From positions 1 through 63,835 of the forward strand of contig CAYJWW010000001.1 of assembly GCA_964374065.1 (NCBI GenBank): a stretch of DNA of 63,835 nt, written 5' to 3'. The notes under the pieces were generated by a model. It worked only from the letters and a program-made list of their open reading frames with translations. It had not been told where the DNA came from and ran no database searches. The stretch is from an uncultured Candidatus Saccharibacteria bacterium. GTDB taxonomy: Bacteria > Patescibacteriota > Minisyncoccia > UBA6257 > 2-01-FULL-56-20. Position 1 is the first letter of the stretch. Every line of letters starts with the position of its first letter. Both the position numbers and the translations under genes were made by a program. Positions 35,988-49,040 of this stretch are shown here, in pieces.

Positions 35988-36007
35988 GAGCTCGTTCGAA
36001 GAACACT

Positions 36008-36042
36008 TAGGCCCGACGTTTCCGTCGGGCCTGCGCATTTTT
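36008..36042 (+). terminator. intrinsic terminator
   Basis: AGGCCCGACG-TTTC-CGTCGGGCCT followed by GCGCATTTTTT. Confidence 0.75.
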
Positions 36043-36102
36043 TGACATCCTCCTTCGATTTTTGTAATACAACAGTGGAATTCGCTTGAGAAAGGAACGC
36101 CG

Positions 36103-36906
36103 ATGAAAACTCCGACCGATGAAGAGGCCTGGGAAGCCGCGCTCGATCTGGCGCTCCAGGAACGATACGACGCGTACCACCGCGAGGAAGCGCGACAATC
36201 GAAGATCGGGAGAAAGCTCCGCGCCGAGCACGAGAGCATCAAAACGGGCGACCTCGAAGTGCTCGCCGAGCATCCGAAGGCAGGCGAGCTCATGGACGAG
36301 GCCCGCGAGTATGCGGCCCTCCAGACCGCGCGCGATGATGCGATCCGCGCAAGCATCTTGGGCGAGCTCTCACAGAACGTGGGCGAGATGCGGGCGTACG
36401 ACTACCGAACTCCGGCCCAAATCGCGGAGTTCTACCTCGCGAACTACGACCGGATGGCCCACTTCGTGGCCCCGGATGCCGAGAGGGCGTGGCGCGCGTT
36501 CTGCGAAACGATCGCGGCGTGGGATGTCCCCGCGATCTTCGCTGGTCTCTGCCGCCTCCTTGAGTTGGCGAAAGCGGAACTCCTCCGAACCGGACTCCCG
36601 CCGACGCCGGTGCGGCGAGGCGAGGAACGGAAGCCGGGAACAGATGACCAGCTGCTTTTCGCGCTCCCCTTCGGGGTTCTGCGCATCGCAAACGCGAAGC
36701 CCACGGCGGAACAGCTCCCCCACTTCTTCGACGGGAGCTTGCTCGACGACTTCGACGACGAGTCCGCCCTAAGGGACTGGGGGCAATTCCTCGAAGCCGC
36801 ATCCAAATGCGACGTCGCGCACATGCTCGAGGGGCTCTCCGGCACGCTCTCGTCGGTCATGAGCGAACTGCTCTTTACGGAACTGCCGCAGCCGAAGGCG
36901 GAGTAG
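36103..36906 (+). CDS. acidic hypothetical protein (267 aa)
   Basis: The frame with coherent helical, acidic composition is MKTPTDEEAWEAALDLALQERYD. The alternative overlapping frames are Arg/Ser-rich artefacts. Confidence 0.6.
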   Translation: MKTPTDEEAWEAALDLALQERYDAYHREEARQSKIGRKLRAEHESIKTGDLEVLAEHPKAGELMDEAREYAALQTARDDAIRASILGELSQNVGEMRAYDYRTPAQIAEFYLANYDRMAHFVAPDAERAWRAFCETIAAWDVPAIFAGLCRLLELAKAELLRTGLPPTPVRRGEERKPGTDDQLLFALPFGVLRIANAKPTAEQLPHFFDGSLLDDFDDESALRDWGQFLEAASKCDVAHMLEGLSGTLSSVMSELLFTELPQPKAE

Positions 36907-36925
36907 GAACTTCCCCGAATCCAAC

Positions 36926-36949
36926 ACGGCCCGACTAGAACGTCGGGCC
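36926..36949. terminator. hairpin between convergent genes (no clear U-tract)
   Basis: CGGCCCGAC-TAGAAC-GTCGGGCCG. The stem sequence is nearly identical to the hairpin at 36008. Confidence 0.4.
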
Positions 36950-36955
36950 GAAGTA

Positions 36956-37888
36956 TCACCGCAACTGGACCACGTCGCCGTCCTCCAGGCGGTGCTCCAG
37001 GCCGACTTCCTGCCCGGGGAACTTGCCGGACGGCCCCCAGATCGCGGCGCACGTAACGTGTTCCAGCATCTCTCCGTGAATCTTCAACGCAAGCTCCTTG
37101 ATCGTGCTCTGCACCGGCAAAAGAATCGGCTTTTCAGATGCGATCCCATTTTTGTCTTTGGGGAAGATCCGGATCAGCCCGAGCATCTCCCAAATCTTCA
37201 TTTTTAATTCGTGAAGCCCTTCTCCGGTAACCGCAGATACGGGGAGAACCGCGACGTTCGCAAACTGCGCGTTGATCGCGTCCAGGCTGCGCCTCGAATC
37301 AGGAAGATCCGACTTATTCGCCGCGACGAGCCGGATATCCGCGATCCCGACCGCCCGGATTTCGGCAAGGATTTTGCGCAGTTCCTCCGGACCATCCGCC
37401 AAACTGCAGACCACGATCACAAAATCAGCCCCTTTCGCAACCGAAAGAAGTTTCCTCCCCATGCCCCTGCCTTCGTGGGCTCCTTCGATCAGCCCCGGCA
37501 CCTCGACGAGCTGTACCTGGGCGCCGTATATGTCGCAGATGGCGGGAACCGGCTTCAAGGTCGTAAAGGCATACGGTGCGACTTTCGTCTGAACGGCGGT
37601 GAGCGCTCGAAGGAGCGAGGACTTCCCCGCATTCGGGGCTCCCACGATCGCGACCTGCGCGTCTCCCTTTTTTTCTACCGCAAACCACTCCCTCCGCGTG
37701 GAAGATTTTCTGACCTTCGCTTCCGCGAGTTCCGCCTTGAGCCACTTGCGGATCTCTCCGTAGGGACCCGTGCGATAGCCGGGGAGTTCGGCGATGAGTT
37801 TCCGTATCTCCTTGATCTTTTCGGATCCGGCTTTCCCCTCGAGCCGCTTTTTCGCCTGTTGCTTAAAGATGATATGTGGTATTGCCAT
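36956..37888 (-). CDS. OBG/DRG-type GTPase with C-terminal TGS domain
   Basis: G1 GAPNAGKSSL, G3 VEVPGLIEGA, G4 NKSD, and a C-terminal TGS-like DGDVVQL. Confidence 0.85.
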   Translation of the reverse strand: MAIPHIIFKQQAKKRLEGKAGSEKIKEIRKLIAELPGYRTGPYGEIRKWLKAELAEAKVRKSSTRREWFAVEKKGDAQVAIVGAPNAGKSSLLRALTAVQTKVAPYAFTTLKPVPAICDIYGAQVQLVEVPGLIEGAHEGRGMGRKLLSVAKGADFVIVVCSLADGPEELRKILAEIRAVGIADIRLVAANKSDLPDSRRSLDAINAQFANVAVLPVSAVTGEGLHELKMKIWEMLGLIRIFPKDKNGIASEKPILLPVQSTIKELALKIHGEMLEHVTCAAIWGPSGKFPGQEVGLEHRLEDGDVVQLR

Positions 37889-37950
37889 GGTTTCTTGATT
37901 CTTGGTTTTTCGTCCCTTCGCCGTTCACTCAGGGCCGTTTCCGCGCGTCG

Positions 37951-37980
37951 AAAACAAAAAAGCCCTGCATGGGCTTTTCT
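37951..37980. terminator. bidirectional intrinsic terminator
   Basis: AAAACAAAAA-AGCCC-TGCAT-GGGCT-TTTCT. On the minus strand the hairpin is followed by TTTTTTGTTTTC. Confidence 0.7.
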
Positions 37981-38007
37981 CCAAAACGCTGCGCCCTTGC
38001 CGCTTTT

Positions 38008-38103
38008 CTACGATTTTGAAGAAAATGTTCCCATGCAAAAACAAGCCCGACCCGTGGCTCCCTTGAAGTTCCCGTAGAGAATGAACGTTTTGAGCTTTTT
38101 CAT
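38008..38103 (-). CDS. candidate leaderless micro-ORF (31 aa) MKKLKTFILYGNFKGATGRACFCMGTFSSKS
   Basis: The ATG sits 7 nt after a TTGACG-17-TACCAT promoter-like element. The ORF is followed by the strong terminator at 37951-37980. Coding status is uncertain and it could be an sRNA. Confidence 0.25.
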   Translation of the reverse strand: MKKLKTFILYGNFKGATGRACFCMGTFSSKS

Positions 38104-38110
38104 GTGCCTG

Positions 38111-38139
38111 ATGGTATGAAATTCAGCGGCTCGCGTCAA
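38111..38139 (-). promoter_or_regulatory. sigma70-type promoter-like element (TTGACG-17-TACCAT)
   Basis: Read on the minus strand. It lies between the terminator of the upstream HExxH gene (38193-38217) and the micro-ORF. Confidence 0.45.
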
Positions 38140-38192
38140 ATTGATCAAAGAGGCCGCGCTTCGTTGCGGAATCCGTCGCCTTAAAAATGTTT

Positions 38193-38217
38193 GGGGCGGC
38201 TCGCGATGAGCCGCCCC
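38193..38217 (-). terminator. intrinsic terminator of the HExxH protein gene
   Basis: GGGGCGGCTC-GCGAT-GAGCCGCCCC (10-bp stem), followed on the minus strand by CAAACATTTTTAA. Confidence 0.75.
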
Positions 38218-38234
38218 GTACTGGTGCGCTTTTC

Positions 38235-39197
38235 TTACTGGAAGTTCTTGGTCGCCCGGATGATCCAGCCGTACGCCTCGGGCTTCTCCGCGCCGCGCCC
38301 GCGGCGGTCGAGGTAGTCGAAGGCCACCGCGATGTAATGAGCAATGCTCATGTGCAAGGCGGCCTGGCGATCGAGAGTTTCACCGAAAGCTTTTTCGAGC
38401 TCCCGCAGATCAGCGGCCGTGAGGCCCGAGAGCAGCTGCCGGCAGCCCCATGCGCGCCTGCCGCTCAAGCGGCGAACCGCATCCTGATACTGCCCGCCGC
38501 TCAGGTTCACGAGCATCCGGAAGCTCGCCTCATGCGCAATAGCCTCTTCCTCGTTCGCCGGCGCCACGACGCCTCTCTGCTTGCGGCTCAAATGCGTACC
38601 CTCGTGGTTCACGATGACCGCGAGGAAGATCCGATTGTACCGGACGGCGGGCAGGAAGAATCCGTCTCCCCGCGGCGCGGCCATGAGCGGACTTTCGTAT
38701 CGCCTCGATACGTCCGCCATTTGATCCTGGGGGACAAGGCCCACGAACGGCAGTTGCCCCTCGATCACTCCCACCACATTCTGGTCGTCCGGCAAGCGAA
38801 CCGCGATCGCCGGATTGGGGAGCGCCTGTCGGACCTCCGGGTCCGCAACGGATAGGGCTTCGAGGAAGCGTTCCCGGAATTCGCGGAATGCCTCGAGTTG
38901 CTCCTGGGGCTCGTGGTGGGTCTTGAGCCACCATGTTTCCGGCTCGCGATTTACGACATACTCCGCGATCGCCTGCCGCATGTTCCGGCCGGCGCGATGG
39001 TCGGCGAACGCATCACAGGCAAACCATGCGCCCAGAACCGCGCTCGCCACAACGATAATCCCGAAGATGCGCCGCACATGGGCGCGGCTGATCCGGGGCG
39101 GCGGCGGCGCGGGCTGAGTGCGCCGTGCGGCTCTTGCTCTCCGCTGGGACACGGAACCTCCTTCCTTCAAGATGCGAACATGTGATTCGGTTCTCAA
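38235..39197 (-). CDS. membrane-anchored putative zinc metallopeptidase (HExxH)
   Basis: One TM helix (IFGIIVVASAVLGAWFA), then VNHEGTHLS (HExxH) and a downstream EEEAIAHEASF as a possible third ligand. The true start may be the GTG at 39152, behind AAGGAGG. Confidence 0.6.
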   Translation of the reverse strand: MRTESHVRILKEGGSVSQRRARAARRTQPAPPPPRISRAHVRRIFGIIVVASAVLGAWFACDAFADHRAGRNMRQAIAEYVVNREPETWWLKTHHEPQEQLEAFREFRERFLEALSVADPEVRQALPNPAIAVRLPDDQNVVGVIEGQLPFVGLVPQDQMADVSRRYESPLMAAPRGDGFFLPAVRYNRIFLAVIVNHEGTHLSRKQRGVVAPANEEEAIAHEASFRMLVNLSGGQYQDAVRRLSGRRAWGCRQLLSGLTAADLRELEKAFGETLDRQAALHMSIAHYIAVAFDYLDRRGRGAEKPEAYGWIIRATKNFQ

Positions 39198-39266
39198 ATA
39201 ATGCCTTCTGGGGACTGAAGTGTAGGCGGAAGATCCGCGGCAGTCAAGGAACGCGGCGTGATCCTC

Positions 39267-39488
39267 TTAAACTAAGTGCTTGTTGCGGGAAGTAAAACCG
39301 GAGCCTTGCTTCAGGTATTTTTCAAAGTCTAGAGCTTTTTTCTTATCCCAAAAACAACAATACCAAACAAGTTTAAACGGGACTTTGCTCGCAGTATGTT
39401 TTGATACATGCCAATTGTGATTCTTAACACGACCATCGGGATCCTCGCTGAAACCGGCGTAATAGCTTTTATCTTTTTCACTTCGCAC
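39267..39488 (-). CDS. GIY-YIG nuclease-family small protein, probably 5'-degenerate
   Basis: SEKDKSYYAGFSEDPDGRVKNHN...PFKLVWYCCFWDKKKALDFEKYLKQG matches the short GIY-YIG (URI) domain layout. The first strand reads NFLV with only a GTG start and no ATG upstream in frame. The region is low-GC. Confidence 0.55.
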   Translation of the reverse strand: MRSEKDKSYYAGFSEDPDGRVKNHNWHVSKHTASKVPFKLVWYCCFWDKKKALDFEKYLKQGSGFTSRNKHLV

Positions 39489-39520
39489 AAGAAAGTTTCC
39501 TCCCCCGCCCCTCCATTTTT

Positions 39521-39545
39521 TGCCCGCTCGCCGGATTTACTCTAG
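39521..39545 (+). repeat. left inverted repeat flanking the Cys-rich gene
   Basis: TGCCCGCTCGCCGGATTTACTctAG. 21/21 nt (23/25 overall) are identical to the reverse complement of 41368-41392. Confidence 0.95.
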
Positions 39546-39562
39546 GGCCAAGTGGAGATATA

Positions 39563-41365
39563 ATGGAGATAATGAGTACGGAAACTCGCCGATGCCAAAG
39601 TTGTAAAACCCAGTTTACGATTGAACCGGAGGACTTTCTGTTTTACAAAAAAATCAATGTCCCTCCACCGACTTTTTGTCCCGAATGCAGGATGATCCGG
39701 CGAATGAATTTCAGGAATGCTCGGGTGATGTACAAAAGAAAAGTTGAGCAGGCGAATTTGGAGGTTTTTTCTTCTTTTTCTCCCGATACACCCCTCACCA
39801 TCTATGAGCAAAGCTATTGGTGGTCTGGTGATTGGGACGCTATGCAGCGGGGCAAGCCGTATGACTTTTCACGACCGTTTTTTGTTCAACTCAAAGAACT
39901 GATGCAAAGAGTCCCGTGGCCATCTGGTTACAATCTCCGATCAGTAAACAGCGATTATTGCAACAATGTTACAGATTTGAAAAATTGCCATCTTTTATTC
40001 AATTCAGGATTTTCCGAATCCTCTGCCTATGGAGCGGAAATGTTGCGGTGCAATGAAGTTTTTGATTCAACCAAAGTCATCGGATGCGAATTATCCTATG
40101 AACTCCTTGATTGTGAAAAGTGCAATCGCGCTTTTTTCTCTCAGGATTGCGTTGGATGTTCAGAAATTTATTTTTCTCAAAATCTAACAGATTGCCATAA
40201 CTGCTTCGGGTGTATCAATCTCCGCCACAAGCAATACCGTATTTTCAATGAGCAGTACACAAAAGCGGAATACAAGGAATTTCTGAACAAGATCAACCTC
40301 GGCTCTTACAAGGTTGTTGAGGAAATGAAAGAAAAAAGTGTGAGCCACTATTTTCACTTCCCGCGGAGGTATGTGCATGGACAAAACAACAACAACGTAA
40401 GCGGCGATTACTTGGATCATTCAAAGAATACCCACCGTTCCTACTTGTGCAGAGAAATGGAGGATTGCAAGTATTGTCAGCTGATACTTTTTTTGCCCAG
40501 CCGAGAATCATATGACATGACAGTGGCCGGAGGGGAGTTATGTTATGAAGTTGAGGAAGGCGGGGGTTATGGCGTTAAATTTTCGTGGCTTGCATTGCCT
40601 AAAAATCTGAAAACGAGACAAATAAATCTTTTCGATATGGAATATTCGATGGAATGTTTTGATTCGTCATATCTTTTCGGGTGCATAGGTCTCAAAAATA
40701 AGCAGTACTGTATTTTGAACACGCAGTATACAAAAGAAGAATACGCAGAGTTGGTGCCGAAAGTTATTGATCACATGAACTCCATGCCATACACCGATAC
40801 AATGGGGCGTACTTATAAGTACGGAGAGTTTTTCCCGGTTGACCTTTCGCCTTTCGGATACAACGAGACAATCGCACAAGAATATTCCCCTTTGACAAAA
40901 AAAGAAGCGGTCGCGCGGGGTTATGCTTGGAGAGATACTGACGAGCAAAACTACAAGGCAACGGTTGAAGACAACGAACTCCCCGATAGCATTGACGAGG
41001 TAAAGGATTCGATCATCAATGAAAAAATTCATTGTGCTCATTCCGGGAAATGCAACGATGGTTGCACTTCCGTTTTCCGTATTATTCCGATTGAATTGCA
41101 ATTTTATCGAAGATTTAATCTCCCGATTCCGAGATTGTGCTCCAACTGCCGCTATTACCAACGAATCGTAAAACGAAATCCTTTACGTCTTTGGCGACGC
41201 AAATGCACATGTGGCGGAAACAAATCAGAGAACGGCGTTTATCAAAACACAACCGTACACTCTCACGCCGAGAATCCTTGCCCGAACCGGCTCGAGACCT
41301 CTTATGCGCCAGAGAAACCGGAGATTGTCTACTGCGAGCAGTGCTATAACAAGGAGATAGTTTAG
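39563..41365 (+). CDS. 600-aa Cys-rich protein with terminal zinc-ribbon modules and internal duplication; family not recognised
   Basis: N-terminus CQSCKTQFTIEPEDFLFYKKINVPPPTFCPECR; C-terminus CTSVFRIIPIELQFYRRFNLPIPRLCSNCR. Internal duplicates CFGCINLRHKQYRIFNEQYTKAEYKEF and LFGCIGLKNKQYCILNTQYTKEEYAEL. Many evenly spaced Cys. Low-GC. Confidence 0.8.
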   Translation: MEIMSTETRRCQSCKTQFTIEPEDFLFYKKINVPPPTFCPECRMIRRMNFRNARVMYKRKVEQANLEVFSSFSPDTPLTIYEQSYWWSGDWDAMQRGKPYDFSRPFFVQLKELMQRVPWPSGYNLRSVNSDYCNNVTDLKNCHLLFNSGFSESSAYGAEMLRCNEVFDSTKVIGCELSYELLDCEKCNRAFFSQDCVGCSEIYFSQNLTDCHNCFGCINLRHKQYRIFNEQYTKAEYKEFLNKINLGSYKVVEEMKEKSVSHYFHFPRRYVHGQNNNNVSGDYLDHSKNTHRSYLCREMEDCKYCQLILFLPSRESYDMTVAGGELCYEVEEGGGYGVKFSWLALPKNLKTRQINLFDMEYSMECFDSSYLFGCIGLKNKQYCILNTQYTKEEYAELVPKVIDHMNSMPYTDTMGRTYKYGEFFPVDLSPFGYNETIAQEYSPLTKKEAVARGYAWRDTDEQNYKATVEDNELPDSIDEVKDSIINEKIHCAHSGKCNDGCTSVFRIIPIELQFYRRFNLPIPRLCSNCRYYQRIVKRNPLRLWRRKCTCGGNKSENGVYQNTTVHSHAENPCPNRLETSYAPEKPEIVYCEQCYNKEIV

Positions 41366-41367
41366 TC

Positions 41368-41392
41368 CTGAAGTAAATCCGGCGAGCGGGCA
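41368..41392 (-). repeat. right inverted repeat flanking the Cys-rich gene
   Basis: The reverse complement reads TGCCCGCTCGCCGGATTTACTtcAG. It begins 3 nt after the stop codon. Confidence 0.95.
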
Positions 41393-41531
41393 TCGCTCCG
41401 CCTGCCCGATAGGGCAGAACGCCTCAATAAAGTTTTCTTCTTCCTTATTTGAACTTTTTGGGGGCGTGCGCGAAATCCGAGAACAATGTGAAACCCGCAA
41501 GTTGCGAGTTTTGCGATTTTCAGCGAAGAAG

Positions 41532-41846
41532 TGGAGATGGAGGGAATCGAACCCTCGTCTAAAGATGAAGCCAATGAACCTTCTACGAGCGTGTTTCGGT
41601 TGGGAACCGAACGAAGGCGATCCTGAATTTTCGTCCGAGGACCAGGATCGTCATCCTCGGCTTAACCTCCTTATATAAGACCGTACGATGCCTAAGAGGT
41701 ACAGGCGAGGCGGTCCTCTGGCTTACGCGTAAGCGAATGCCGGAGCTGCAACGTTTCGGTTGGCAGTTAAATTGATTTGCGAGTTTTGCGACGTCGCGGT
41801 CGGCTCGCCAGCCCACGGCCAATCTTCATCGAAGCCGTGCATCCCC
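41532..41846 (-). ncRNA. ssrA: tmRNA (ssrA), tag ANRNVAAPAFAYA
   Basis: 5' GGGGATGCACGGCTTCGA and 3' GAGGGTTCGATTCCCTCCATCTCCA form an acceptor stem with a G3:U pair. The internal ORF GCC AAC CGA AAC GTT GCA GCT CCG GCA TTC GCT TAC GCG TAA lies at 41723-41764. Confidence 0.9.
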
Positions 41847-41869
41847 GTATATAGTTTTCAATCGCGAAC

Positions 41870-41898
41870 AGTATAACCGAGAATTGCTGAAAAGTCAA
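41870..41898 (-). promoter_or_regulatory. near-consensus sigma70-type promoter of ssrA
   Basis: The minus strand reads TTGACT-17 nt-TATACT. The -10 ends about 23 nt upstream of the mature tmRNA 5' end. Confidence 0.6.
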
Positions 41899-42000
41899 AT
41901 CTTAGAGCGAGCGGTATACCGCATCACATACACAAGGCGACCCGCCGTTTCGGGGGTCGCCTTCGCGTTTCTTGACGGAAGCGGCTGTAACCGATAGCGT

Positions 42001-42246
42001 ATGAATAGTTTCATCCAAGCCGTGCTATATCGGAAAGGAGACACCGTGGCGCTTGTGAGGCTCATTGGATTTACGACGCTCGATTGCGGGTGCGTCATCG
42101 GCAGATACCGGGAGATAGGAACCCAGCGCGAGCTCGCATATGTTGAGGAAAAAGGTGCCTCCTGCACGAATACCACCCATAGGCGAAGCAGCCGATTCAC
42201 CGAGCCGCCTGCAAAACCGGCCGAACCGCGCCGGAAAACCGAGTGA
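42001..42246 (+). CDS. hypothetical small protein (81 aa)
   Basis: ORF with plausible composition (MNSFIQAVLYRKGDTVALVRLIGFTTLDCGCVIGRY). Its stop overlaps the next ORF. No SD. Confidence 0.4.
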   Translation: MNSFIQAVLYRKGDTVALVRLIGFTTLDCGCVIGRYREIGTQRELAYVEEKGASCTNTTHRRSSRFTEPPAKPAEPRRKTE

Positions 42247-42254
42247 GGTGTCTC

Positions 42255-42515
42255 ATGCCGAAACTCACGATCGAAGTGAATGAAGCGGTCCACACGCTCT
42301 TGGGCCAGCCGGAGATCCGCTTCCTCGGCGAAACTCCGGAGGAAGTCGCTTCGTTCCTCGTCAAAAACGGCTGCATCGAGCTCGTTGCGAAAGGCGGCCT
42401 GCTCGACCACCTAGGAAGCTCGTCAACTCGGCGCCCGCCAGCTCCACCGCGGACGGCAAGGCGCCACATTGGGACAAGTCATGGAATCGAAATTCATCGT
42501 CGGCGTGGCGAATAA
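42255..42515 (+). CDS. hypothetical small protein (86 aa)
   Basis: The ATG at 42255 follows GAGGTG. The N-terminal 55 aa look protein-like (MPKLTIEVNEAVHTLLGQPEIRFLGETPEEVASFLVKNG). The tail is Arg/Pro-rich and overlaps the next gene. Confidence 0.45.
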   Translation: MPKLTIEVNEAVHTLLGQPEIRFLGETPEEVASFLVKNGCIELVAKGGLLDHLGSSSTRRPPAPPRTARRHIGTSHGIEIHRRRGE

Positions 42516-42837
42516 AGTGAGTGCGACGTGGAACATCGAGGAGCGCCGAGCGCGGGTTGCGGTGTATCCGGACCAAGAGAGCGATGTTCCCACCCATCCG
42601 GAACATCTGAATCTCCACTTCGTCTGCGCGGGCGTTGAGGCGGCGAACACCGTGCTCCGCGCGCACGACATAAACGTGCGCCTGCATGAACGGCAGAACC
42701 GCGAACTCCCGATCCGCTTTACCATCTCCGAGCCGATCAAGGAACAAGAACGGCCGGACCAAGTGATGCGGCGGATCGTCCGCGAAGTGGAATCGCAATT
42801 CGCGATGAAGCTCCGGAAGATCGCCCTGAATCGGTAA
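42481..42837 (+). CDS. hypothetical protein (118 aa)
   Basis: MESKFIVGVANKVSATWNIEERRARVAVYPDQ. Balanced composition, followed directly by a strong terminator. Confidence 0.55.
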   Translation: MESKFIVGVANKVSATWNIEERRARVAVYPDQESDVPTHPEHLNLHFVCAGVEAANTVLRAHDINVRLHERQNRELPIRFTISEPIKEQERPDQVMRRIVREVESQFAMKLRKIALNR

Positions 42838-42876
42838 TCCCTCGTTTTGCAAGCAAGACGAGGGATTCGCGTTTTA
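42836..42876 (+). terminator. intrinsic terminator
   Basis: AATCCCTCGT-12 nt loop-ACGAGGGATT followed by CGCGTTTTA. Confidence 0.7.
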
Positions 42877-43180
42877 ACCGGCTCAGCCGCTCTTAGCGGT
42901 GGCTGTTCCATTCCTTCTAGACACACGAAAAAGCCCCGAACCGCTCTGGCGGCAAGGGACCTTCGCATTTTCTATGCACAAAATGCCTTGACGAAGGGTA
43001 CGTTCGGCGCCATAGTAATGCCGTTCGCGTTCTTTGACAGTACTTGAATACCGCGCGGAAACACAATGCGCCTTTTAAAATAGACTGAAACAATAAGAAG
43101 GCGTACGGAGTTCCGCGAGGAATCGCCCGTTGTGAGGACGAGCGACTTTACTTAAAAAGTCGAAAAAACATTCGAGTCAT

Positions 43181-43894
43181 ATGATAAAACACATCGCTCT
43201 TTTTGCGATCGTGTGCGCTGCTGTCTTCGCGTTCGTTCCAGGGAACCAAGCTCTTGCATCGCACGGCGGAGCGGAGATCACGCAAGTGGTGACGCTCTCG
43301 TCTCAGCCGTTGGGTAAGGAAACGCTCCAATTGCTCGGGCAAACATTAGGAGCATTGAGGCAGGTCCTCGACACCATCGGCACGCGCGTGAATTCGGCGG
43401 ATCCGCAGGTCGCCTTTAGCGCGGCCCAGCGCCCGGCAGTCTATGCCGTACTGGGCGGGATCCGCGAGTCGCTTCTCTCGATCGACGCGCAGCTCGCGGG
43501 CAAGGCGGTTGCGGCGGGGTATCCGCAGGCGCCTCTGACCGCACAGACGCCCGCACCCGCTCCGGTAGCGCAGCGCGCGCCCGAAGGGGCTCCCGCCCCT
43601 GCGACCGCTTCGAATGAAGCCGCGCGGCAGCCGGCCGCCGCCACAGCCCAGCCCGCTCCGCAATTCAGCGCATCCGAGGTAGAGCGGACGGGGCAAACCG
43701 CGGTCGTTGCGGCGCGCGCCGAAACCGCACGGCGCTGGTTCTTCATCACTTTGGGGATCATCCTGCTCGCAGGTGCCGCGTTTTACTGGTGGCGCGAGCG
43801 ACAAGTCGCGAGCGAGGACGCAGTGTTCGAAGCTCCGCAATTCGCGACAGGTTCTCCCAAAGAAGACGCTCCCTCGTGGAGCCCGGGAACGTAA
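43181..43894 (+). CDS. secreted/anchored Ala-Pro-rich protein (signal peptide + C-terminal TM)
   Basis: MIKHIALFAIVCAAVFAFVPGNQALA looks like a signal peptide. It is followed by a helical region, an A/P/Q-rich linker, the TM helix WFFITLGIILLAGAAFYWW and a short tail. Confidence 0.65.
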   Translation: MIKHIALFAIVCAAVFAFVPGNQALASHGGAEITQVVTLSSQPLGKETLQLLGQTLGALRQVLDTIGTRVNSADPQVAFSAAQRPAVYAVLGGIRESLLSIDAQLAGKAVAAGYPQAPLTAQTPAPAPVAQRAPEGAPAPATASNEAARQPAAATAQPAPQFSASEVERTGQTAVVAARAETARRWFFITLGIILLAGAAFYWWRERQVASEDAVFEAPQFATGSPKEDAPSWSPGT

Positions 43895-43903
43895 CGGATC
43901 CGA

Positions 43904-43932
43904 GAGACCCCGAAAGGGGTCTTTTGGTTTTT
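43904..43932 (+). terminator. canonical intrinsic terminator
   Basis: GAGACCCC-GAAA-GGGGTCTT followed by TTGGTTTTT. Confidence 0.85.
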
Positions 43933-43959
43933 GACACGCTTCACCAATCGATATACAAA
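43931..43959 (+). promoter_or_regulatory. sigma70-type promoter-like element
   Basis: TTGACA-17 nt-TACAAA lies about 55 nt upstream of the ATG at 44013, which has the SD AAGGAGGAGGG. Confidence 0.5.
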
Positions 43960-44012
43960 TAGGGCGGAACCGCCCAAGAGGTGCGCCTCGCGGGCCAAAC
44001 AAGGAGGAGGGT

Positions 44013-44699
44013 ATGCCCTTACCGAACGAACTGTGCGGATTACGAACGCTCGCTGCCCGCGGACCCTTGGCCGACGATGACTGGTGCGCGCTCCTCGAGG
44101 CGCGCCACAGGCTCATCGCGCCGCAACTCGACCGATTCACGCTTCCCTCGCTGGGAACGTTCCAGTGCCTCAAAACGGAATCGCACTGGACACGCCAGAT
44201 CAGCTGTTTCGTCTCGAACACTACCGGCGATTCCCGGTTCTCGCTCGAGACGCAGGGACTCTTTGGATACTCGTGGAGCAGCCGGGAAGAAACGAGCCCC
44301 GACCGGCACGTCAACATGTGGTACGCACAGACCCTTCATCCAGCGGACGGATGTCTCCGCATCTGGGGACTCACTCGGAAGGGCAACTGGATCATTGCCA
44401 CCGTCGTATATGTCGGCGAGGAAGGATACAAGGGACGAGGCGCCGAACGCGCGACGGAAATCGGGATCCGCGAAGTCACCATCCAGGAGCTCGTCGCGCA
44501 ATCGAAGTGCCACCCGCGGGAGATCTGGAGGGCGCTGGGAAAGCGCTTTCACGAACTCGTTCAGATCCGGCGGGCGCAGTACGAGAACGCTCGCGAAATC
44601 GCGGCGGTTATGAACACCGAAGAGCAGCTCGAAGCGCTCATTGAAGAACGACTCAGGAAGGCGGAACATGGAGATCACAACGAACCGGCCTCCGCATGA
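44013..44699 (+). CDS. hypothetical protein (228 aa)
   Basis: Strong SD and balanced composition with a C-terminal helical tail. No family recognised. Confidence 0.65.
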   Translation: MPLPNELCGLRTLAARGPLADDDWCALLEARHRLIAPQLDRFTLPSLGTFQCLKTESHWTRQISCFVSNTTGDSRFSLETQGLFGYSWSSREETSPDRHVNMWYAQTLHPADGCLRIWGLTRKGNWIIATVVYVGEEGYKGRGAERATEIGIREVTIQELVAQSKCHPREIWRALGKRFHELVQIRRAQYENAREIAAVMNTEEQLEALIEERLRKAEHGDHNEPASA

Positions 44700-44871
44700 A
44701 AAACCCGTCGCGTTCGAGTACCTTTCGGACTACGGCTTCGCTGCCATATGCCCCTTCTGCGGGAAGCCGGCGGTACTCGAGGCGACCTGCGACGAAGGAA
44801 GGAAGTTCTGCTGCGAACGCGACGCCTGCAAGGATCGTGCCGCAGCGTTCGCCCGTGCCTTCGCGGCGTAA
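44668..44871 (+). CDS. small Cys-rich (zinc-finger-like) protein (67 aa)
   Basis: MEITTNRPPHEKPVAFEYLSDYGFAAICPFCGKPAVLEATCDEGRKFCCERDACKD. The ATG overlaps the end of the previous gene. A hairpin terminator follows. Confidence 0.5.
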   Translation: MEITTNRPPHEKPVAFEYLSDYGFAAICPFCGKPAVLEATCDEGRKFCCERDACKDRAAAFARAFAA

Positions 44872-44888
44872 CCCACTTGAACATCCAG

Positions 44889-44910
44889 AGGCCCCGACTC
44901 GTCGGGGCCT
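44889..44910 (+). terminator. hairpin terminator
   Basis: AGGCCCCG-ACTCGT-CGGGGCCT followed by TCGCATTTATTC. A second hairpin lies at about 44943-44968. Confidence 0.5.
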
Positions 44911-45026
44911 TCGCATTTATTCACAAGGCATTAAATAAGTTCGGGGCCGCTCGTGTGAGTGGCCCCGTATGAAAGATTCCGACCCCTGGGTCGGCAGGTT
45001 ACGCTCTATTGATGATGCCAAGGTGC

Positions 45027-45099
45027 GTATTTATATGATACCGCGAATGTGCACATCCGCAATACGGCCTGTGGATAACTCCGGTAAATATGTGGATAT
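45027..45099 (+). repeat. AT-rich tract plus three phased DnaA-box/iteron-like repeats (candidate replication origin)
   Basis: GTATTTATATGATA at 45027-45040. Then TGTGCACAT (45048), TGTGGATAA (45070; exact reverse complement of TTATCCACA) and TGTGGATAT (45091), spaced 22 and 21 nt apart. Confidence 0.5.
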
Positions 45100-45183
45100 C
45101 TCGCTTAACGGGCTTTTTCCGTGCTCTACAAATGAAACGGCGCGCAGGGCCTCCTTTCGGAGACGCGCTACGCGCCGGTGATG

Positions 45184-47907
45184 TCAGCCGTCCTCTGTGA
45201 CGGCTTGGCTTTCGAACCCTGCGGGGCCCGTACGCGGATCCATTGCCGCGATCCGGGCAAACCGCTCAAGCTCTGCCACGTGCCTGCCTTCCTTCACCCA
45301 CCAGGTGTTGATGTCGTCGTGCGGCGACCCTGGCGAAATGATCTCGGGCGTGCCGTTCCGAACCTCTCCCTGGAAACCGAGCTTCCGCACCTCGGCGATC
45401 AAGGCGTCTGCCGCCTTAATCCCCGCATCGTCGTTGTCGAGCGCGACGACGAGTGCGTTGCCGGTTCGCTTCACGGCCTCGACAACCGCTTTCGTAATCG
45501 TCGCGTTCGCGATGCCGGCGTACGCGATCGTTGATTTCCCCAGGCCTTCGAGGGTCAAGGCATCCATCACTCCCTCCACGAGCCAAACCTCGCGCCCGAG
45601 GGTACGGAACGATTCTCGTCCGAACCAACCATGGGGAACCCCCGTGTGTTCGGTGGAGAGCTTGAGATGCTTCGGCTTCCCCTCCGAACGGATCGTCCGG
45701 GCGTAAAAGTTCGTGAGCTTCCCGTCATAGGTCAGCGGAAAGGTGATGCGGCCGTCGACGAATAGCGAGTACGGCAGGCCATACTTTTGCTCCTCGCCTT
45801 TCAGGGCGGAGGAGATCGGGCGTTTCGCCGTCTCGAACGTGAATCCAAGGCGGGCGAGGAGCTGCGGCATCGACTGTCCCCAGCGCACATTCTCCGAGAG
45901 TCCGAGGATGCCGTAGTGGATAAGCTCGTCGAGGCTATACTCGCACTCCTTGATGAGCGCGGAGATGAGCCCGAGCGTTGCGAACCCCGCTCCTTTCTCG
46001 TATGCGAAGTCTGGATCGAGTCCCCGTTCGCGCCACAGGTAATCCGCCGCCGCGCTCCGTATGAAGCACGCGTGGAGGAGTTCTTGCACGGCCGCGAGGA
46101 AGCGATGATGCTCGGCGGGTACGGCGATCACGTCTCCCTTTGCGCCTCGGACTCGTCCGGCTCCTGGCGCGAAAGCGATCTCGTACTCCGCAGGAACGGA
46201 GCGCGGATCGATCCCTCCGGCGCGATTGCATCCGAAACAGTGGAACGCGCCTCTCGGGATGTTCACGTAGAACGATGGATTGCCGGGATCGGCGTGATCA
46301 GGGAATGGGCAACGGATATGCCCGCCGCGCCCAGGATTGAAGGACTTCGAAATGTCGATCTCTCCGTCACGGATCGCTTCGATCAAGTTCCCGAGATGAA
46401 GCGAGAATTTCCCGTCCGGCTCCCGCGCGATGATACGCGCATCGTCCACGAAACGGTACCGCTCAATGAGCTGGACCGCCCGCGTTCGAGGCGCGATCAT
46501 TGCATCCAAGAGCGGACTTTTTCTCCGGAGACGCGGTGCTTCCGACTTCCCGCGCAACGTTCGGATAAGGTAATTCGCGAGGTCGGCGTTCAGTGCCCGC
46601 ACGTCGGCGCGCCGTTCGGCTCTCTTCCAGCGTGCGACTACCCACTCGAGAAAGCCCTGCTTTTGCTCGCTCGGAGCGGAGGTCACGCCGTGGGAGATTG
46701 CGTTCGCGGTCGGAATGAAATACACCATGTCTCCGCGCTTCGCGCTCGTTTCCTCCCACAGCCGCCCGCCTCCCGCCAGGTGGTGGCTCATCGCGGCGAA
46801 GATGAGATAGGTGAGCATCTGGTCTTCGTGGCGCCGGATCGGCTTGTCGCTCACTTCGGCGAGTTGGATGATCTTCCCCCTCGTCCCATCGCCCACCGCG
46901 AATTTCCAGTCGCGGACCTCGGCTTCGAACTCGCCGAAGAGGACGATGAGGTTGCGGAGGAGCTCGACGAGCGAGCCCCACCGATACCGCGTCATCCGCT
47001 CGAGCACCCGAAACTGCGAGTGAGTCGGTGGTTTGCCGTTGATCGTCGCGATCTCCAGGGCGTCGATGCGCCGGCCCCCCATGCCGTGGATCGAGGGCTG
47101 GAAAATGGGTATCTCCGAGAAGAAGATCCTCGGCTGCTCCAATTCCTCCCGATAGAGGCGGAGCACCATTGCCCAGGCCATCGCGGTTAAAGCGGCAAGG
47201 TAACCGGAATCGGCGAGTTCCGGGCGTTGGATCGCCCTCGTGTAGTCGCCCATGATCGGCGCGAGCGCATCATAGAGCTCACAAACCTCCGGCCGAGCGG
47301 AAAAGTACCATGCCGACCAGTCGCGTGATGATTCGACGTTTGCCTGAAGCGCTTGCCATGCCGTATCGATCCGGTCGAACACGCGCTCAAGGGCCTTGCC
47401 CTCGAGCGGTTTCGCTTTCCCGCCGCCGGTCATATGGCCGTTCGGATATCCGTCGAAAAGCGGCAGCGGGCTTGGTTCGCCGAAAAGCTCGAGCTGACCC
47501 GCATGCGCGCGTTGCGGCTGATTCAGGAAAAGCGCTCCCGAAAAAAGCCGCGGCACCATTGCATGGCCGATGATCCCGAAAACCCGCGTGGAATCGGCCC
47601 GCCGATCGCGCTTCACGCCCGTGAGCTCTTCGAGCTGCGCGAAGAGCGCGTAGTGGAAGCGGTCGTTGTTCAGGTCGCCCCAGAGCGGCGGACCGCCTTT
47701 GCGGTTCATCCGCTTCGCGAGTTGGACCAAGGCGGCGAGCGCGGCCTCTTTCGAGTCCGCGATCTTCGCGGCGATGAGCGCCCGGACGAAAAGGTCAAGC
47801 CTTCCGCCCGAGAGCATTTCCCACGCCCAATCTCCGAACTGAGGAGAGGGCACGGGGAGATCGCTCAAGTCTTCGGCCGTCACCGGCTCGATGAGCTGGT
47901 CTTCCAT
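45184..47907 (-). CDS. fusion protein: N-terminal PD-(D/E)xK (RecB/Cas4-like) nuclease-like region + DnaG-type primase (zf-CHC2 + TOPRIM)
   Basis: zf-CHC2: CPFPDHADPGNPSFYVNIPRGAFHCFGCNRAG. TOPRIM: VWLVEGVMDALTL ... VVALDNDDAGIKAA. Nuclease-like motifs: GRRIDAL, EVRDWKF, QMLTYL. Start at the ATG at 47907, behind AAGGAG. Confidence 0.8.
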   Translation of the reverse strand: MEDQLIEPVTAEDLSDLPVPSPQFGDWAWEMLSGGRLDLFVRALIAAKIADSKEAALAALVQLAKRMNRKGGPPLWGDLNNDRFHYALFAQLEELTGVKRDRRADSTRVFGIIGHAMVPRLFSGALFLNQPQRAHAGQLELFGEPSPLPLFDGYPNGHMTGGGKAKPLEGKALERVFDRIDTAWQALQANVESSRDWSAWYFSARPEVCELYDALAPIMGDYTRAIQRPELADSGYLAALTAMAWAMVLRLYREELEQPRIFFSEIPIFQPSIHGMGGRRIDALEIATINGKPPTHSQFRVLERMTRYRWGSLVELLRNLIVLFGEFEAEVRDWKFAVGDGTRGKIIQLAEVSDKPIRRHEDQMLTYLIFAAMSHHLAGGGRLWEETSAKRGDMVYFIPTANAISHGVTSAPSEQKQGFLEWVVARWKRAERRADVRALNADLANYLIRTLRGKSEAPRLRRKSPLLDAMIAPRTRAVQLIERYRFVDDARIIAREPDGKFSLHLGNLIEAIRDGEIDISKSFNPGRGGHIRCPFPDHADPGNPSFYVNIPRGAFHCFGCNRAGGIDPRSVPAEYEIAFAPGAGRVRGAKGDVIAVPAEHHRFLAAVQELLHACFIRSAAADYLWRERGLDPDFAYEKGAGFATLGLISALIKECEYSLDELIHYGILGLSENVRWGQSMPQLLARLGFTFETAKRPISSALKGEEQKYGLPYSLFVDGRITFPLTYDGKLTNFYARTIRSEGKPKHLKLSTEHTGVPHGWFGRESFRTLGREVWLVEGVMDALTLEGLGKSTIAYAGIANATITKAVVEAVKRTGNALVVALDNDDAGIKAADALIAEVRKLGFQGEVRNGTPEIISPGSPHDDINTWWVKEGRHVAELERFARIAAMDPRTGPAGFESQAVTEDG

Positions 47908-48146
47908 GTTCCGTCTCCTTATGAGATGGGTTCCGAGTTCCAAGCTGCAAGTGGTAAGTTTTCAAACGAGTCCCTGCTGGCTATATAGCATTATTCGGAT
48001 CGCGGGCTCAAGTGAAGCTGTGCACAGCCTGTATGCGGGCGCACACCATGACGATGACGGCTGTGGTTTTTGCCATCGTCATCGCACGGAGATGCGTATC
48101 CCCCGCGAGCGCGATGCCCGCAGGGGATCCTGTGATGTGCCCGGCC

Positions 48147-48752
48147 TTAGGCCACGCGCTTCTTCAAGCGCGCCTCGTCGGCGATGACCTCCTCGATCTC
48201 GTCGCCGGCGGGCTTTACGCGGAATTCCACGACCTGGACGATCTTCACGCCCTTCACGTTCGCGGCCTTCTCGCGGTTCTCCTCCGACTGGAGGATCGTC
48301 TCGCGGTCCACCTCTTCCTTCTTCCGCACGAAGTCGGTGAGGCCGAGCGCCTTCAAGCGCCCGATCACGGCGTCCGCCTTGTCGGTCAATTCCACCTTGT
48401 GCGGATTCGTGTGCTCGCCGATCACTCCCGTGCCCAAGTCCACCGACTTGCGCGCGCCGTTCTCGGTAAGCTCGGCGCGGTTCGCGTCGAAGAAGAGGAA
48501 GAGCGCGTCCACGAGAGAGTCGATTCTCTGCTGGTGGGGGCCCGCCTTTTGGGTAACCTCTTCCTGGATCTTCGCCATGCGCCCTTGGGCGTCCGTGGCG
48601 ATCGTCTTGAGCTTCCGCTGCTCGTCGCCCAAGAGGCGCACGAGCCGCGCGGCCCCTTCGCGGTCCGCGGGGACCTCGACGGCGGGTTTCGGTTGGACGA
48701 TTTTCTCGCCGACCGGCTTTCGGGCGGCAACTGCCCCTTTCGCGCTTGCCAT
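48147..48752 (-). CDS. gam: bacteriophage Mu Gam-like DNA-end-binding (host nuclease inhibitor) protein
   Basis: ANRAELTENGARKSVDLGTGVIGEH and LKALGLTDFVRKKEEVDRETIL align closely with Mu Gam (ANRDELTNGGKVKTANLVTGDVSWR; LERLGLQRFIRTKQEINKEAIL), preceded by a coiled coil. ATG at 48752, behind GAGGAGG. Confidence 0.85.
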   Translation of the reverse strand: MASAKGAVAARKPVGEKIVQPKPAVEVPADREGAARLVRLLGDEQRKLKTIATDAQGRMAKIQEEVTQKAGPHQQRIDSLVDALFLFFDANRAELTENGARKSVDLGTGVIGEHTNPHKVELTDKADAVIGRLKALGLTDFVRKKEEVDRETILQSEENREKAANVKGVKIVQVVEFRVKPAGDEIEEVIADEARLKKRVA

Positions 48753-48861
48753 GGGAACCTCCTCTGACCGGCCTCCGGCGCCGGACGAAGTTTGGGATGC
48801 TGGATCAGAACCGCCATTAGATAAGCAAAGGAGAACGCCGCCGTCAAACGATGCGGGCCCG

Positions 48862-48872
48862 GTGGATAACTC
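48862..48872 (+). repeat. second copy of GTGGATAACTC (DnaA-box-like) upstream of gam
   Basis: The 11-mer is identical to 45071-45081, in direct orientation. The two copies bracket the gam-primase module. Confidence 0.7.
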
Positions 48873-48998
48873 GGCTCGTAAAAAGTTCTCACTCGCGTAT
48901 ACTGTGGGCAAAAGGTCGTTTGCGTAACCATGAAGCCCTTCGGGGCGCGCCGGGCTATGCCGGGCGGCCAATCGTTTGGATCTCGACGCAAGCGAGCG

Positions 48999-49030
48999 AT
49001 CCCGCCTCCCGGCGGGATTTGTTAGTTTAA
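48999..49030 (+). terminator. orphan plus-strand intrinsic terminator
   Basis: ATCCCGCC-TCCC-GGCGGGAT followed by TTGTTAGTTT. No plus-strand CDS lies upstream of it. Confidence 0.55.
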
Positions 49031-49040
49031 AATAGCTACC

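Follow-up and report, generated by a model that had tools for sequence, protein, structure and literature searches.

An Islet-Like, Low-GC Patch beside ssrA in a GC-Rich Patescibacterium and the Inverted Repeat around Its Cys-Rich Gene

A perfect inverted repeat that closely surrounds a single gene, set in DNA of deviant composition against the 3′ end of a tmRNA gene (ssrA), raises the question of whether the enclosed gene is a mobile cassette, an invertible segment, or simply part of a DNA segment acquired in some other way. We addressed this question in the window, by which we mean the whole 63.8-kb stretch of DNA that was analyzed. A first-pass annotation had described a sharply GC-poor and presumably foreign patch on the island side of ssrA and had suggested that the repeats delimit a mobile cassette that landed in or next to a degenerate GIY-YIG gene. 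The features of the locus are listed in table 1.

Table 1. Coordinates of the Features in and next to the Low-GC Patch
Feature	Position	Strand	Support
Low-GC patch, ~2.3 kb	39250..41530	.	GC, GC3, promoter-like site at left border
Stand-alone small GIY-YIG nuclease gene, 5′ end clipped	39267..39497	-	PF01541
Upstream module of Cys-rich gene: C-rich tract, T-run, 21-mer, 30-nt spacer	39487..39571	+	
Inverted repeat, left arm (perfect 21-mer 39521-39541)	39521..39551	+	31 nt at 87%
Sigma-70-like promoter match: TTTACT, 17-nt spacer, TATAAT	39536..39564	+	10/12 matches
Intact Cys-rich gene, 597 aa (600 aa from 39563), 32 Cys	39572..41365	+	
Inverted repeat, right arm (perfect 21-mer 41372-41392)	41362..41392	-	31 nt at 87%
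Hairpin cluster 3′ of Cys-rich gene	41380..41470	+	MFE -21.4 kcal/mol, z = -3.0
tmRNA gene (ssrA), full length, tag ANRNVAAPAFAYA	41529..41846	-	Rfam RF00023, 100.4 bits

The GC content is 0.440 over positions 39200–41530 and 0.577 in the remainder of the window, and the patch is the lowest-GC 2.3-kb segment within the 63.8 kb (z = −5.8 relative to windows outside the patch). In 300-nt windows the GC content remains between 0.39 and 0.48 across 39150–41400, with about 0.55–0.67 in the flanks, and GC at third codon positions (GC3) is 0.39 in the GIY-YIG gene and 0.48 in the 600-aa ORF versus 0.62–0.80 in 19 other ORFs of the window. Both the sliding-window and the codon-level measures therefore bear out the sharp drop in GC and the compositional part of the proposal that the patch is foreign. 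On the left, the junction is bounded by the promoter-like site of the host gene (down to 39219–39247) and the stop codon of the GIY-YIG gene at 39267, and on the right it falls somewhere within 41393–41530; two ORFs with homologs, the GIY-YIG gene and the Cys-rich gene, make up the content of the patch. The source metagenome is rich in CPR bacteria (Patescibacteria) and the switch in composition is abrupt, as would be expected if reads of a low-GC CPR genome had been joined into a high-GC contig during assembly; however, such a chimera is the least probable of the explanations that we considered. An independent assembly produced by a different pipeline (Logan contig L001 from run ERR3478686) has the same 11.9-kb structure, matching window positions 37194–49110 at 99.97% with identical patch junctions, and the four SNPs that separate the two are distributed over the patch (two) and its flanks (two). 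Moreover, the GC junctions and the inverted repeat are located at different places.

The single Cys-rich ORF of 600 aa that had been described between the repeats (39563–41365, + strand) is indeed present; the start codon favored by the family consensus is ATG 39572, giving a protein of 597 aa in which Cys accounts for 5.4% of the residues. Treble-clef or zinc-ribbon modules are located at the two ends of the protein, and its Cys-rich core is internally duplicated. A search for homologs returned 6,591 matches, every named one from Patescibacteria, and among the matches listed most had 99–100% coverage and 48–72% identity. All 33 invariant columns in an alignment of 72 family members, the invariant Cys residues included, are kept in the window protein. 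The nearest named cluster is assigned to Ca. Nomurabacteria, and the closest homolog (72% identity) is encoded in a CPR contig with a GC content of 47.6%. Pfam contains no family for this protein, the zf_Tbcl model matching weakly in 26 of the 72 members. A confident AF2 model was obtained, with a pLDDT of 82.5 and a pTM of 0.86; a Foldseek search with this model against the PDB gave nothing (best E = 5.9), the corresponding search against BFVD returned only short zinc-ribbon pieces, and sequence and profile searches of the PDB yielded no credible match. A full-text search of the literature found nothing on the Cys-rich family or on CPR ssrA islets. The Cys-rich protein thus belongs, in intact form, to a very large and uncharacterized family of predicted zinc-finger proteins that is restricted to the CPR.

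Paralogs in this family are arranged in tandem, tightly packed and diverged, and they leave no room for terminal repeats; elsewhere in the window no paralog was found. Compared with the sequence P0002, the window protein is 83% identical over residues 1–400 and 51% identical over residues 446–600, and the gene is possibly a mosaic. The IS-like layout of the locus led us to consider the Cys-rich protein as a transposase, an assignment that is disfavored by the packed tandem paralogs without terminal repeats and by an AF2 model that matches no solved fold. A role as phage or plasmid cargo was rejected because IMG/VR, the INPHARED phages, and the PLSDB plasmids contained no homolog and the PHROG search gave one weak match (E = 4.8e-4). 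PADLOC gave no match.

The GIY-YIG ORF matches positions 5–73 of the 78 in PF01541 (E = 2.3e-12) with 47.5 bits against the Pfam gathering cutoff of 22.6, and the domain homology reaches to about 39497. Its best representative is 51% identical, and its nearest named relative is a cluster from Ca. Paceibacterota. Homologs begin with MYYVYIL, and the alignment to them confirms that the equivalent codons are here in frame without an ATG. The sole canonical in-frame start is GTG 39488, with GGAGG 10 nt upstream; this codon specifies the last residue of strand 1, so that the first β-strand is not complete from a start. The Logan gene caller did not call the gene on the independent contig. Most likely it is a pseudogene or a crippled remnant that is started at GTG. 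The loss of the start coincides precisely with the onset of the upstream region of the Cys-rich gene, and the two genes were therefore brought together by a rearrangement, in agreement with the initial suggestion of a landing in or next to the GIY-YIG gene.

The 21-mer TGCCCGCTCGCCGGATTTACT occurs at 39521–39541 (+) and 41372–41392 (−) with 21 of 21 positions identical, and no third copy was detected in the 63.8-kb window at up to five mismatches, the chance expectation being 0. The perfect repeats first noted around the ORF are thus confirmed in exactly two copies, and a REP-like element, which had been named as the reading that would undo the significance of the repeats, is rejected for the window. 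The left 21-mer is separated by 21 nt from ATG 39563 and by 30 nt from ATG 39572; the right one begins 6 nt past the stop codon (41363–41365), which the 31-nt version overlaps. An apparent T-loop plus acceptor look suggested a tRNA fragment, which was rejected because it implies CCCGCTC as the 5′ end: among the tRNAs of the examined loci none ends accordingly, and Rfam searches at E ≤ 1 were empty there. An analogy to integron cassettes (attC) was discarded by reasoning, because the circular-permutation model requires a G-rich loop after the right arm and this loop is absent.

What, then, is the left arm? Its final 6 nt are the −35 hexamer (TTTACT) of the sigma-70-like promoter match, and the arm as a whole corresponds to positions −51 to −31 of the Cys-rich gene, that is, the hexamer plus 15 bp upstream. 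ATG 39572 is located 7 nt past the −10 hexamer, a distance that would suggest a leaderless mRNA. The same upstream module precedes a 40%-identical paralog in Ca. Liptonbacteria (locus L010), where the geometry is TTTACT-17-CATGAT-7-ATG. Between the two loci, 25 of 26 nt are identical at −56 to −31 and the distance to the ATG is 30 nt in both, with 18/30 identities in the spacer and 27/60 (45%) at third codon positions. In the flank outside the 26-mer the best block is identical at 18 of 20 positions (0/1000 shuffles reach its score), and the homology runs about 45 nt beyond the outer edge of the left arm. Because the homology continues outside it, the left arm is not the terminus of an element, and the persistence of a nearly unchanged module before a distant paralog in another CPR lineage speaks for a functional element, either a promoter or a binding site for a protein. 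We conclude that the 21-bp inverted repeat is genuine but does not delimit a transposable unit. The complete identity of the arms (21/21) would fit recent formation as well as selection.

The alternative that the 1.87-kb unit 39521–41392 is a nonautonomous cassette bounded by terminal inverted repeats, similar to a mobile insertion cassette or a cargo-bearing MITE and moved in trans by a transposase encoded elsewhere, draws on the layout of the locus: a perfect 21-bp terminal repeat that widens to 31 nt, an interval filled by one ORF, a −35 hexamer within the left repeat and a stop codon within the right one as in many IS elements, foreign DNA around the unit, and a GIY-YIG gene that is clipped on the side of the unit. 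We nonetheless consider it unlikely, given that the flanks, ending in CCATTTTT on the left and beginning with TCGCTCCG on the right, share no 2 nt or more when read from the sequence, which leaves the unit without a target-site duplication, and that the window holds no additional copy. Exact matches to the 21-mer were found at a single locus in the GTDB species genomes and at a single locus in the JGI metagenomes, both from the same Liptonbacteria population and both with one unpaired arm, whereas two viral scans were empty (the exact 21-mer is absent from IMG/VR). The homology with the Liptonbacteria locus passes the left arm, five other family loci including that of the closest homolog have no flanking inverted repeat, and no IS with matching ends was present in the data examined. 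Across the patch boundaries, no significant direct repeat was detected; the candidate pair CAAGAAAGTTTCCT / CAATAAAGTTTTCT was reached by 102 of 300 shuffles. The search for the 21-mer elsewhere thus recovered the Liptonbacteria arm but no paired copy, and the original view of the repeats as the limits of a mobile cassette is not supported. Under the favored islet explanation, which is developed below, the IS-like layout is treated as a coincidence.

A somewhat less probable alternative is that the repeats are the recombination sites of an invertible segment, with inversion of the entire gene by a site-specific recombinase encoded at an unlinked position. The repeats are perfect, inverted, and of a size used by invertases, the Liptonbacteria locus contains, at a distance of 3.4 kb from the 21-mer, a large serine recombinase gene bracketed by its own perfect 133-nt inverted repeat, and some recombinases, such as Mpi of Bacteroides fragilis, are known to act on sites far from their own genes. 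However, among the 48 window ORFs scanned none carries an integrase, recombinase, or transposase Pfam domain, so the earlier remark that a local recombinase is missing stands; furthermore, the window assembly and the Logan contig have the same orientation, and the Liptonbacteria locus carries one arm only. With a −35 hexamer in both arms and the −10 hexamer inside the segment, flipping would rebuild the same promoter and provide no obvious ON/OFF switch. Overall, we found no sign that the inverted repeat makes the enclosed gene mobile or invertible. A broader version, with a fainter chance still of being correct, holds that the promoter-bearing 21-mer is a recognition site by which genes of this CPR family are moved or inverted, through either an unlinked recombinase, which would make the unit a single-gene element of a new kind, or the zinc-finger protein itself; if true, either form of recognition would help to explain the many paralogs of the family, their varied contexts, and their apparent mosaicism.

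On the other side of the Cys-rich gene, no more than 140 nt separate the patch from the tmRNA 3′ end, which faces it; the adjacency that had been reported is supported by ARAGORN (41531–41846, − strand) as well as by Rfam. The intervening hairpin cluster consists of GGCGAGCG-GGCAT-CGCTCCGCC, built with the GC-rich half of the right arm, a second hairpin CTGCCC-GATA-GGGCAG, and a longer stem at 41419–41470, and 1 of 200 shuffles folded as well. This predicted cluster is possibly a terminator or insulator, to which the right arm would contribute. A classical integrase-mediated ssrA island was rejected because the scanned ORFs contain no integrase domain and the ssrA 3′ end is not duplicated: the terminal 70 nt of the gene aligned to 36000–41500 and 41850–50000 no better than shuffled sequence. 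The patch is at best the decayed remnant of an ssrA island, or it was inserted by another route.

All named relatives of the host ArgRS belong to Minisyncoccia, Yanofskybacteria, Paceibacterota, or Patescibacteria (identity ≤59%), and the host is therefore a Patescibacterium. Its nearest relative (L005–L009, 65% GTPase identity) has no synteny with the window and no tmRNA nearby, and an exact look-up of both flanking host proteins retrieved only the Logan contig. Neither a donor sequence nor an empty site or orthologous locus, for which a search had been proposed, was found. A native origin of the patch genes, with vertical inheritance and a low GC content intrinsic to the family, has to be weighed at this point: the family occurs throughout the CPR, to which the host belongs, its genes have a GC content of 0.41–0.43 across four genomes that differ in GC and consistently rank among the GC-poorest of their neighborhood, and the lack of a syntenic relative leaves room for vertical presence in the immediate lineage. 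Part of the GC deviation of the Cys-rich gene is indeed intrinsic to the family, whose genes are somewhat GC-poor in every genome examined. We nevertheless hold a native origin to be about as improbable as inversion, because the GC3 of the window gene is 0.19–0.33 below that of nearly all other ORFs, whereas the family genes of the other genomes fall near the bottom of the GC3 range of their neighbors, because the unrelated GIY-YIG neighbor is lower still, because the window has no second paralog, and because the gene is 76.7% identical in DNA over 1,285 nt to a homolog from a 47%-GC genome. GC at the three codon positions is 0.446/0.366/0.478 in the window gene and 0.459/0.360/0.452 in the 72%-identical homolog.

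Because the host is a CPR bacterium, the family is CPR-only among named hits, and the 72%-identical homolog comes from a 47%-GC CPR contig, we infer a transfer within the CPR. Our preferred reading, to which we assign a probability of roughly 0.55, takes the patch as a horizontally acquired islet, small, decayed, and without an integrase, that was left with a passive, promoter-derived inverted repeat. An unusually GC-rich CPR genome (about 58%) would have recently acquired DNA from a lower-GC CPR bacterium (about 43–48%), which would have brought in two donor-type genes, a GIY-YIG gene, now without its first codons including the ATG, and an intact Cys-rich gene. The left arm would then be part of the promoter-proximal module of the gene itself rather than a transposon end, and the right arm an inverted secondary copy of the same 21–31 nt set at the stop codon. 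This copy may have been born by inverted duplication, or two copies of the module may have recombined, as when a convergent pair of paralogs collapses; the family forms arrays of paralogs, and signs of mosaicism are seen in the window copy. If the arms are active at all, they would more plausibly be binding sites for one factor or parts of the promoter and terminator than recombination ends.

Read in this way, the patch is a record of genes that passed between CPR lineages with widely differing base composition and entered the flank of ssrA, here without the usual integrase signature, and it draws attention to a huge CPR-restricted Cys-rich family with tandem arrays of paralogs, no Pfam family, and no relative in the PDB. 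The one surprise is the promoter-proximal sequence of ~26 nt that is kept before 40%-identical paralogs in two distant CPR lineages and is additionally duplicated in inverted form at the window locus. If it is the site of a regulator or recombinase, it provides an entry point into how the family is regulated or moved; if not, the locus is an ordinary acquired islet. Our verdict is an ordinary decayed islet with one unexplained, sharply conserved cis-element.

Several known systems resemble parts of this locus. Williams and others have reportedly catalogued genomic islands and islets that use the ssrA 3′ end as their integration site. Like these, the patch is DNA of foreign composition immediately downstream of the tmRNA 3′ end; unlike them, it has no integrase, its far boundary does not carry the ssrA 3′ end as a direct repeat, and it comprises just 2.3 kb and two genes. 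The GIY-YIG gene resembles the small stand-alone GIY-YIG nucleases (PF01541; COG2827/YhbQ-like) in its single domain of about 80 aa and in the presence of the GIY, Arg/His-Asn, and Glu motifs but lacks the start codon and the first 2–3 codons. It has no DNA-binding extension and is therefore not built like the classical homing endonucleases.

Mobile insertion cassettes and cargo-bearing MITEs, such as MIC231 of Bacillus cereus, carry a passenger gene between terminal inverted repeats and encode no transposase. The unit in the patch likewise contains one passenger gene, short inverted repeats, and no transposase but has no target-site duplication, parent IS, or second copy, and its left repeat is not a terminus but lies inside a conserved upstream region of greater length. 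Invertible segments (invertons) include the Hin/Gin/Cin systems and those served by trans-acting recombinases of the Mpi type. They share with our locus inverted repeats of 20–30 bp around a segment with promoter parts, whereas here no recombinase domain occurs in the scanned ORFs of the 64-kb window, a single orientation was seen, and the unit to be flipped is a whole gene whose promoter is rebuilt either way. Finally, Nijveen, Matus-Garcia and van Passel are said to have described, around 2012, putative mobile promoters that recur upstream of nonorthologous genes. Similarly, a promoter-bearing sequence of ~26–55 nt is nearly identical here before two genes whose coding DNA is saturated; in this case, however, both genes are paralogs of one family in two CPR lineages, and only three copies of the sequence are known, one of which is inverted and apparently lacks the −10 hexamer.

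The patch has a GC content of 0.440 against 0.577 for the remaining window (z = -5.8), the minimum among 2.3-kb windows of the 63.8 kb. Sliding GC falls from ~0.60–0.66 to 0.39–0.48 over ~39150–41400 and then runs at 0.49–0.55 through the tmRNA gene, and third-codon GC (GC3) is 0.39 in the GIY-YIG gene and 0.48 in the long ORF, compared with 0.62–0.80 in 19 other window ORFs, among which one small ORF alone is below 0.67. ARAGORN and Rfam agree on a full-length tmRNA gene on the minus strand, and the tmRNA 3' end therefore points toward the patch. Thus, composition and both tools bear out the low-GC patch abutting the tmRNA 3' end that was described in the first-pass annotation. An independent Logan contig (L001, run ERR3478686) matches the locus at 99.97% with four SNPs, two inside the patch and two outside, and because it reproduces the junctions they are not an artefact of a single assembly.

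Features of the window and of related loci
Feature	Sequence	Position	Strand	Remark
IleRS	window	26730–30140	-	1,136 aa
DRG/Rbg-like GTPase, TGS domain	window	36956–37888	-
L001 match	window	37194–49110
Low-GC patch	window	39200–41530
G-rich tract	window	39498–39520	-	GGAGGGGCGGGGGAGGAAAC
Left arm	window	39521–39541	+	TGCCCGCTCGCCGGATTTACT
ORF between arms	window	39563–41365		600 aa
Cys-rich gene, second ATG	window	39572–41362		597 aa
Right arm	window	41372–41392	-	TGCCCGCTCGCCGGATTTACT
Exact 15-nt direct repeat, copy 1	window	41502–41516		TTGCGAGTTTTGCGA; 15 nt past tmRNA 3' end
tmRNA gene	window	41531–41846 (ARAGORN); 41529–41846 (Rfam)	-
Exact 15-nt direct repeat, copy 2	window	41777–41791		within tmRNA, just upstream of tag-coding region
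ssrA 5'-side genes	window	42000–48971
Phage-type primase	window	45184–47943		Toprim_2, CHC2 finger, phrog_47
Mu Gam-like gene	window	48147–48971
Large serine recombinase locus	L010	2744–4536		adjoins tRNA-Ala(GGC); 3.4 kb to 21-mer
Perfect 133-nt inverted repeat bracketing recombinase	L010	2792–2924; 4404–4536
G-rich tract counterpart	L010	7808–7838		GGAAGGGGGTACGAGGGGGAGGGAAAC
Cys-rich paralogues	L016	8308–21555		two tandem groups
tRNA-Ile, anticodon TAT	L005 (nearest host relative)	18641–18714

The window encodes IleRS, ArgRS, a TrpRS/TyrRS-type synthetase, RNase Y, RNase J, iPGM, PolX, MurB, a Cpn60 chaperonin, and the like. Because the named relatives of its ArgRS are all Patescibacteria (CPR; Minisyncoccia, Yanofskybacteria, Paceibacterota, and others, identity at most 59%), the host is, judged by sequence affinity, itself a CPR bacterium with an unusually high GC content. 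Unlike ArgRS, whose affinity is clearly CPR, the window GTPase has its closest named relatives in Ca. Torokbacteria (51%) followed by Tectomicrobia, Ktedonobacteria, and Dehalococcoidia (~45–47%). A His_Phos_1 histidine-phosphatase domain (residues 501–655) interrupts the synthetase core of IleRS. On the 5' side of ssrA, four ORFs without a family are followed by the phage-type primase and the Mu Gam-like gene; these genes have host-like GC and are possibly what remains of an older mobile element that has since ameliorated.

As expected from the first-pass annotation, one Cys-rich ORF lies alone between the repeats. The family-consensus N-terminus, MxxETKxCQNCK, matches its second ATG, giving a protein with 32 Cys, mutually similar zinc-finger modules at both ends, and a core formed by an internally duplicated Cys-rich region. 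Pfam has no family for this protein, the only matches being weak ones to zf_Tbcl (treble clef) in 26 of 72 members, and sequence and profile searches of the PDB yielded no credible relative. AF2 produced a confident model (pLDDT 82.5, pTM 0.86); a fold search with it gave no PDB match and only zinc-ribbon fragments in BFVD. All 33 invariant family columns are kept in the window copy, for which reason the gene looks functional. There are 6,591 matches among scored candidates, and the named ones in the best 120 are all Patescibacteria. The closest homologue, P0002 (72% aa identity; 76.7% DNA identity over 1,285 nt), is encoded on a contig of 47.6% GC, with a hibernation-factor gene on one side and fmt-def-hisS on the other, and the cluster after it is named Ca. 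Nomurabacteria. The family is arranged in tandem arrays, with five paralogues inside 13 kb of L016, a 44%-GC CPR contig; these are 31–48% identical to the window copy and interspersed with mreB, mreC, PBP2, and L21 genes. Identity of the window copy to its two closest homologues falls from 83% (P0002) and 75% over residues 1–400 to 51–52% (P0002, 51%) over residues 446–600. This drop from P0002 is sharper than that between P0002 and P0003, which hints at mosaicism and suggests a recombinant C-terminal third, identity falling at ~40770–40900 (residues 400–445).

With the patch, this CPR genome carries foreign DNA of CPR origin at the 3' flank of ssrA; of the patch genes, the GIY-YIG gene is clipped and the Cys-rich family member intact. 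Given the deviant GC3, the CPR relatives, and a GC1/2/3 profile in which the window Cys-rich copy nearly equals P0002, the best reading is that the patch was probably transferred recently from a lower-GC CPR donor. The GC contrast is partly intrinsic to the family, since its genes have a GC of 0.41–0.43 in all four CPR genomes examined (the window, L002, L010, and L016), near the bottom of local GC3, where other genes have a GC of 0.39–0.65. The contrast is far greater in the window than in the other genomes, and the unrelated GIY-YIG gene has the same deviation. An empty site was not found; the nearest relative is non-syntenic, and exact look-ups of two flanking host proteins returned the Logan contig only.

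The perfect 21-bp inverted repeat reported around the Cys-rich gene is real and lengthens to 31 nt at 87%. No further copy exists in the window even with five mismatches (chance expectation, none), and the 21-mer is therefore not a repetitive, REP-like element there. Exact scans of GTDB species genomes and JGI metagenomes found one locus each, both from one Ca. Liptonbacteria population (L010, VGJV01000004.1, and L011), and IMG/VR yielded none; the two assemblies both end ~200 nt beyond the 21-mer. In L010, the 21-mer lies in the same orientation upstream of a paralogue with just 40% protein identity, and in both loci it is 30 nt from the family-consensus ATG. A T-run plus the 21-mer is identical at 25/26 positions, compared with 18/30 in the following spacer and 27/60 third positions of the first 60 codons, making this element a conservation island in diverged DNA. 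The final six bases of the 21-mer, TTTACT, belong to a sigma-70-type promoter match (10/12) with a 17-nt spacer and TATAAT, the L010 counterpart being TTTACT-17-CATGAT. Because the ATG is only 7 nt past the -10 hexamer in both loci, the spacing suggests a leaderless transcript. Homology between the loci runs outward beyond the left arm via a C-rich tract up to CAAGAAAGTTT, a block that matches at 18/20 (0/1000 shuffles as good) and abuts the first GIY-YIG-homologous codons. The left arm thus lies within a conserved promoter-proximal module, and its outer end does not mark the limit of a mobile unit. On the opposite strand to the Cys-rich gene, the G-rich tract of both loci resembles a strong Shine-Dalgarno sequence serving the divergent gene, and it could equally form a G-quadruplex; a similar GGCGGGGAGGAAAC is the Shine-Dalgarno sequence of the homologue in L002.

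The window GIY-YIG gene exceeds the Pfam threshold, and the best representatives are ~50% identical; among six clusters looked up, the one named is Ca. Paceibacterota. Its degeneracy was recognized correctly: homologues start MYYVYIL, whereas the window reads ...GGGGN-FLV-RSEKD without an ATG, the sole in-frame start being a GTG where strand 1 ends, and the gene is missing from the Logan gene calls. Because window/L010 homology ends at the first GIY-YIG codons, the start was lost at the joint with the upstream module.

The proposal that the repeats are the ends of a mobile cassette is unlikely; it keeps some weight from an IS-like layout but conflicts with the homology past the left arm, the lack of a target-site duplication, and the absence of a flanking repeat at 5/5 other family loci, closest homologue included, where the longest exact inverted matches (8–10 nt) are at chance level. 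Searches also found neither a duplicate of the ssrA 3' end nor a significant direct repeat spanning the patch boundaries; phage, plasmid, and viral contigs yielded no homologue of the Cys-rich protein, and the patch genes gave no defence-system match. An inverton bounded by the arms is likewise unlikely but keeps some weight: the only other 21-mer, in L010, is close to a serine recombinase, whereas none of the 48 window ORFs scanned contains a recombinase, integrase, or transposase domain, in agreement with the first-pass annotation. The right arm repeats the 21–31 nt in inverted orientation and reaches into the stop codon. Its GC-rich half folds into a local hairpin, the surrounding cluster folding better than 199/200 shuffles; the equivalent half of the L010 21-mer base-pairs with an inverted copy close by, leaving a C-rich loop of 25 nt between them. 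The right arm may have arisen by inverted duplication or by recombination of two module copies, the latter being plausible given the paralogue arrays and possible mosaic. The arms would serve, if at all, as binding, promoter, or terminator parts and not recombination ends.

An acquired islet without an integrase beside ssrA is an already known kind of feature, and transfer between CPR bacteria is no surprise. On present evidence, the Cys-rich family and its upstream element make up no new system; noteworthy are an uncharacterised Cys-rich family and, upstream, a sharply conserved 26-nt element.
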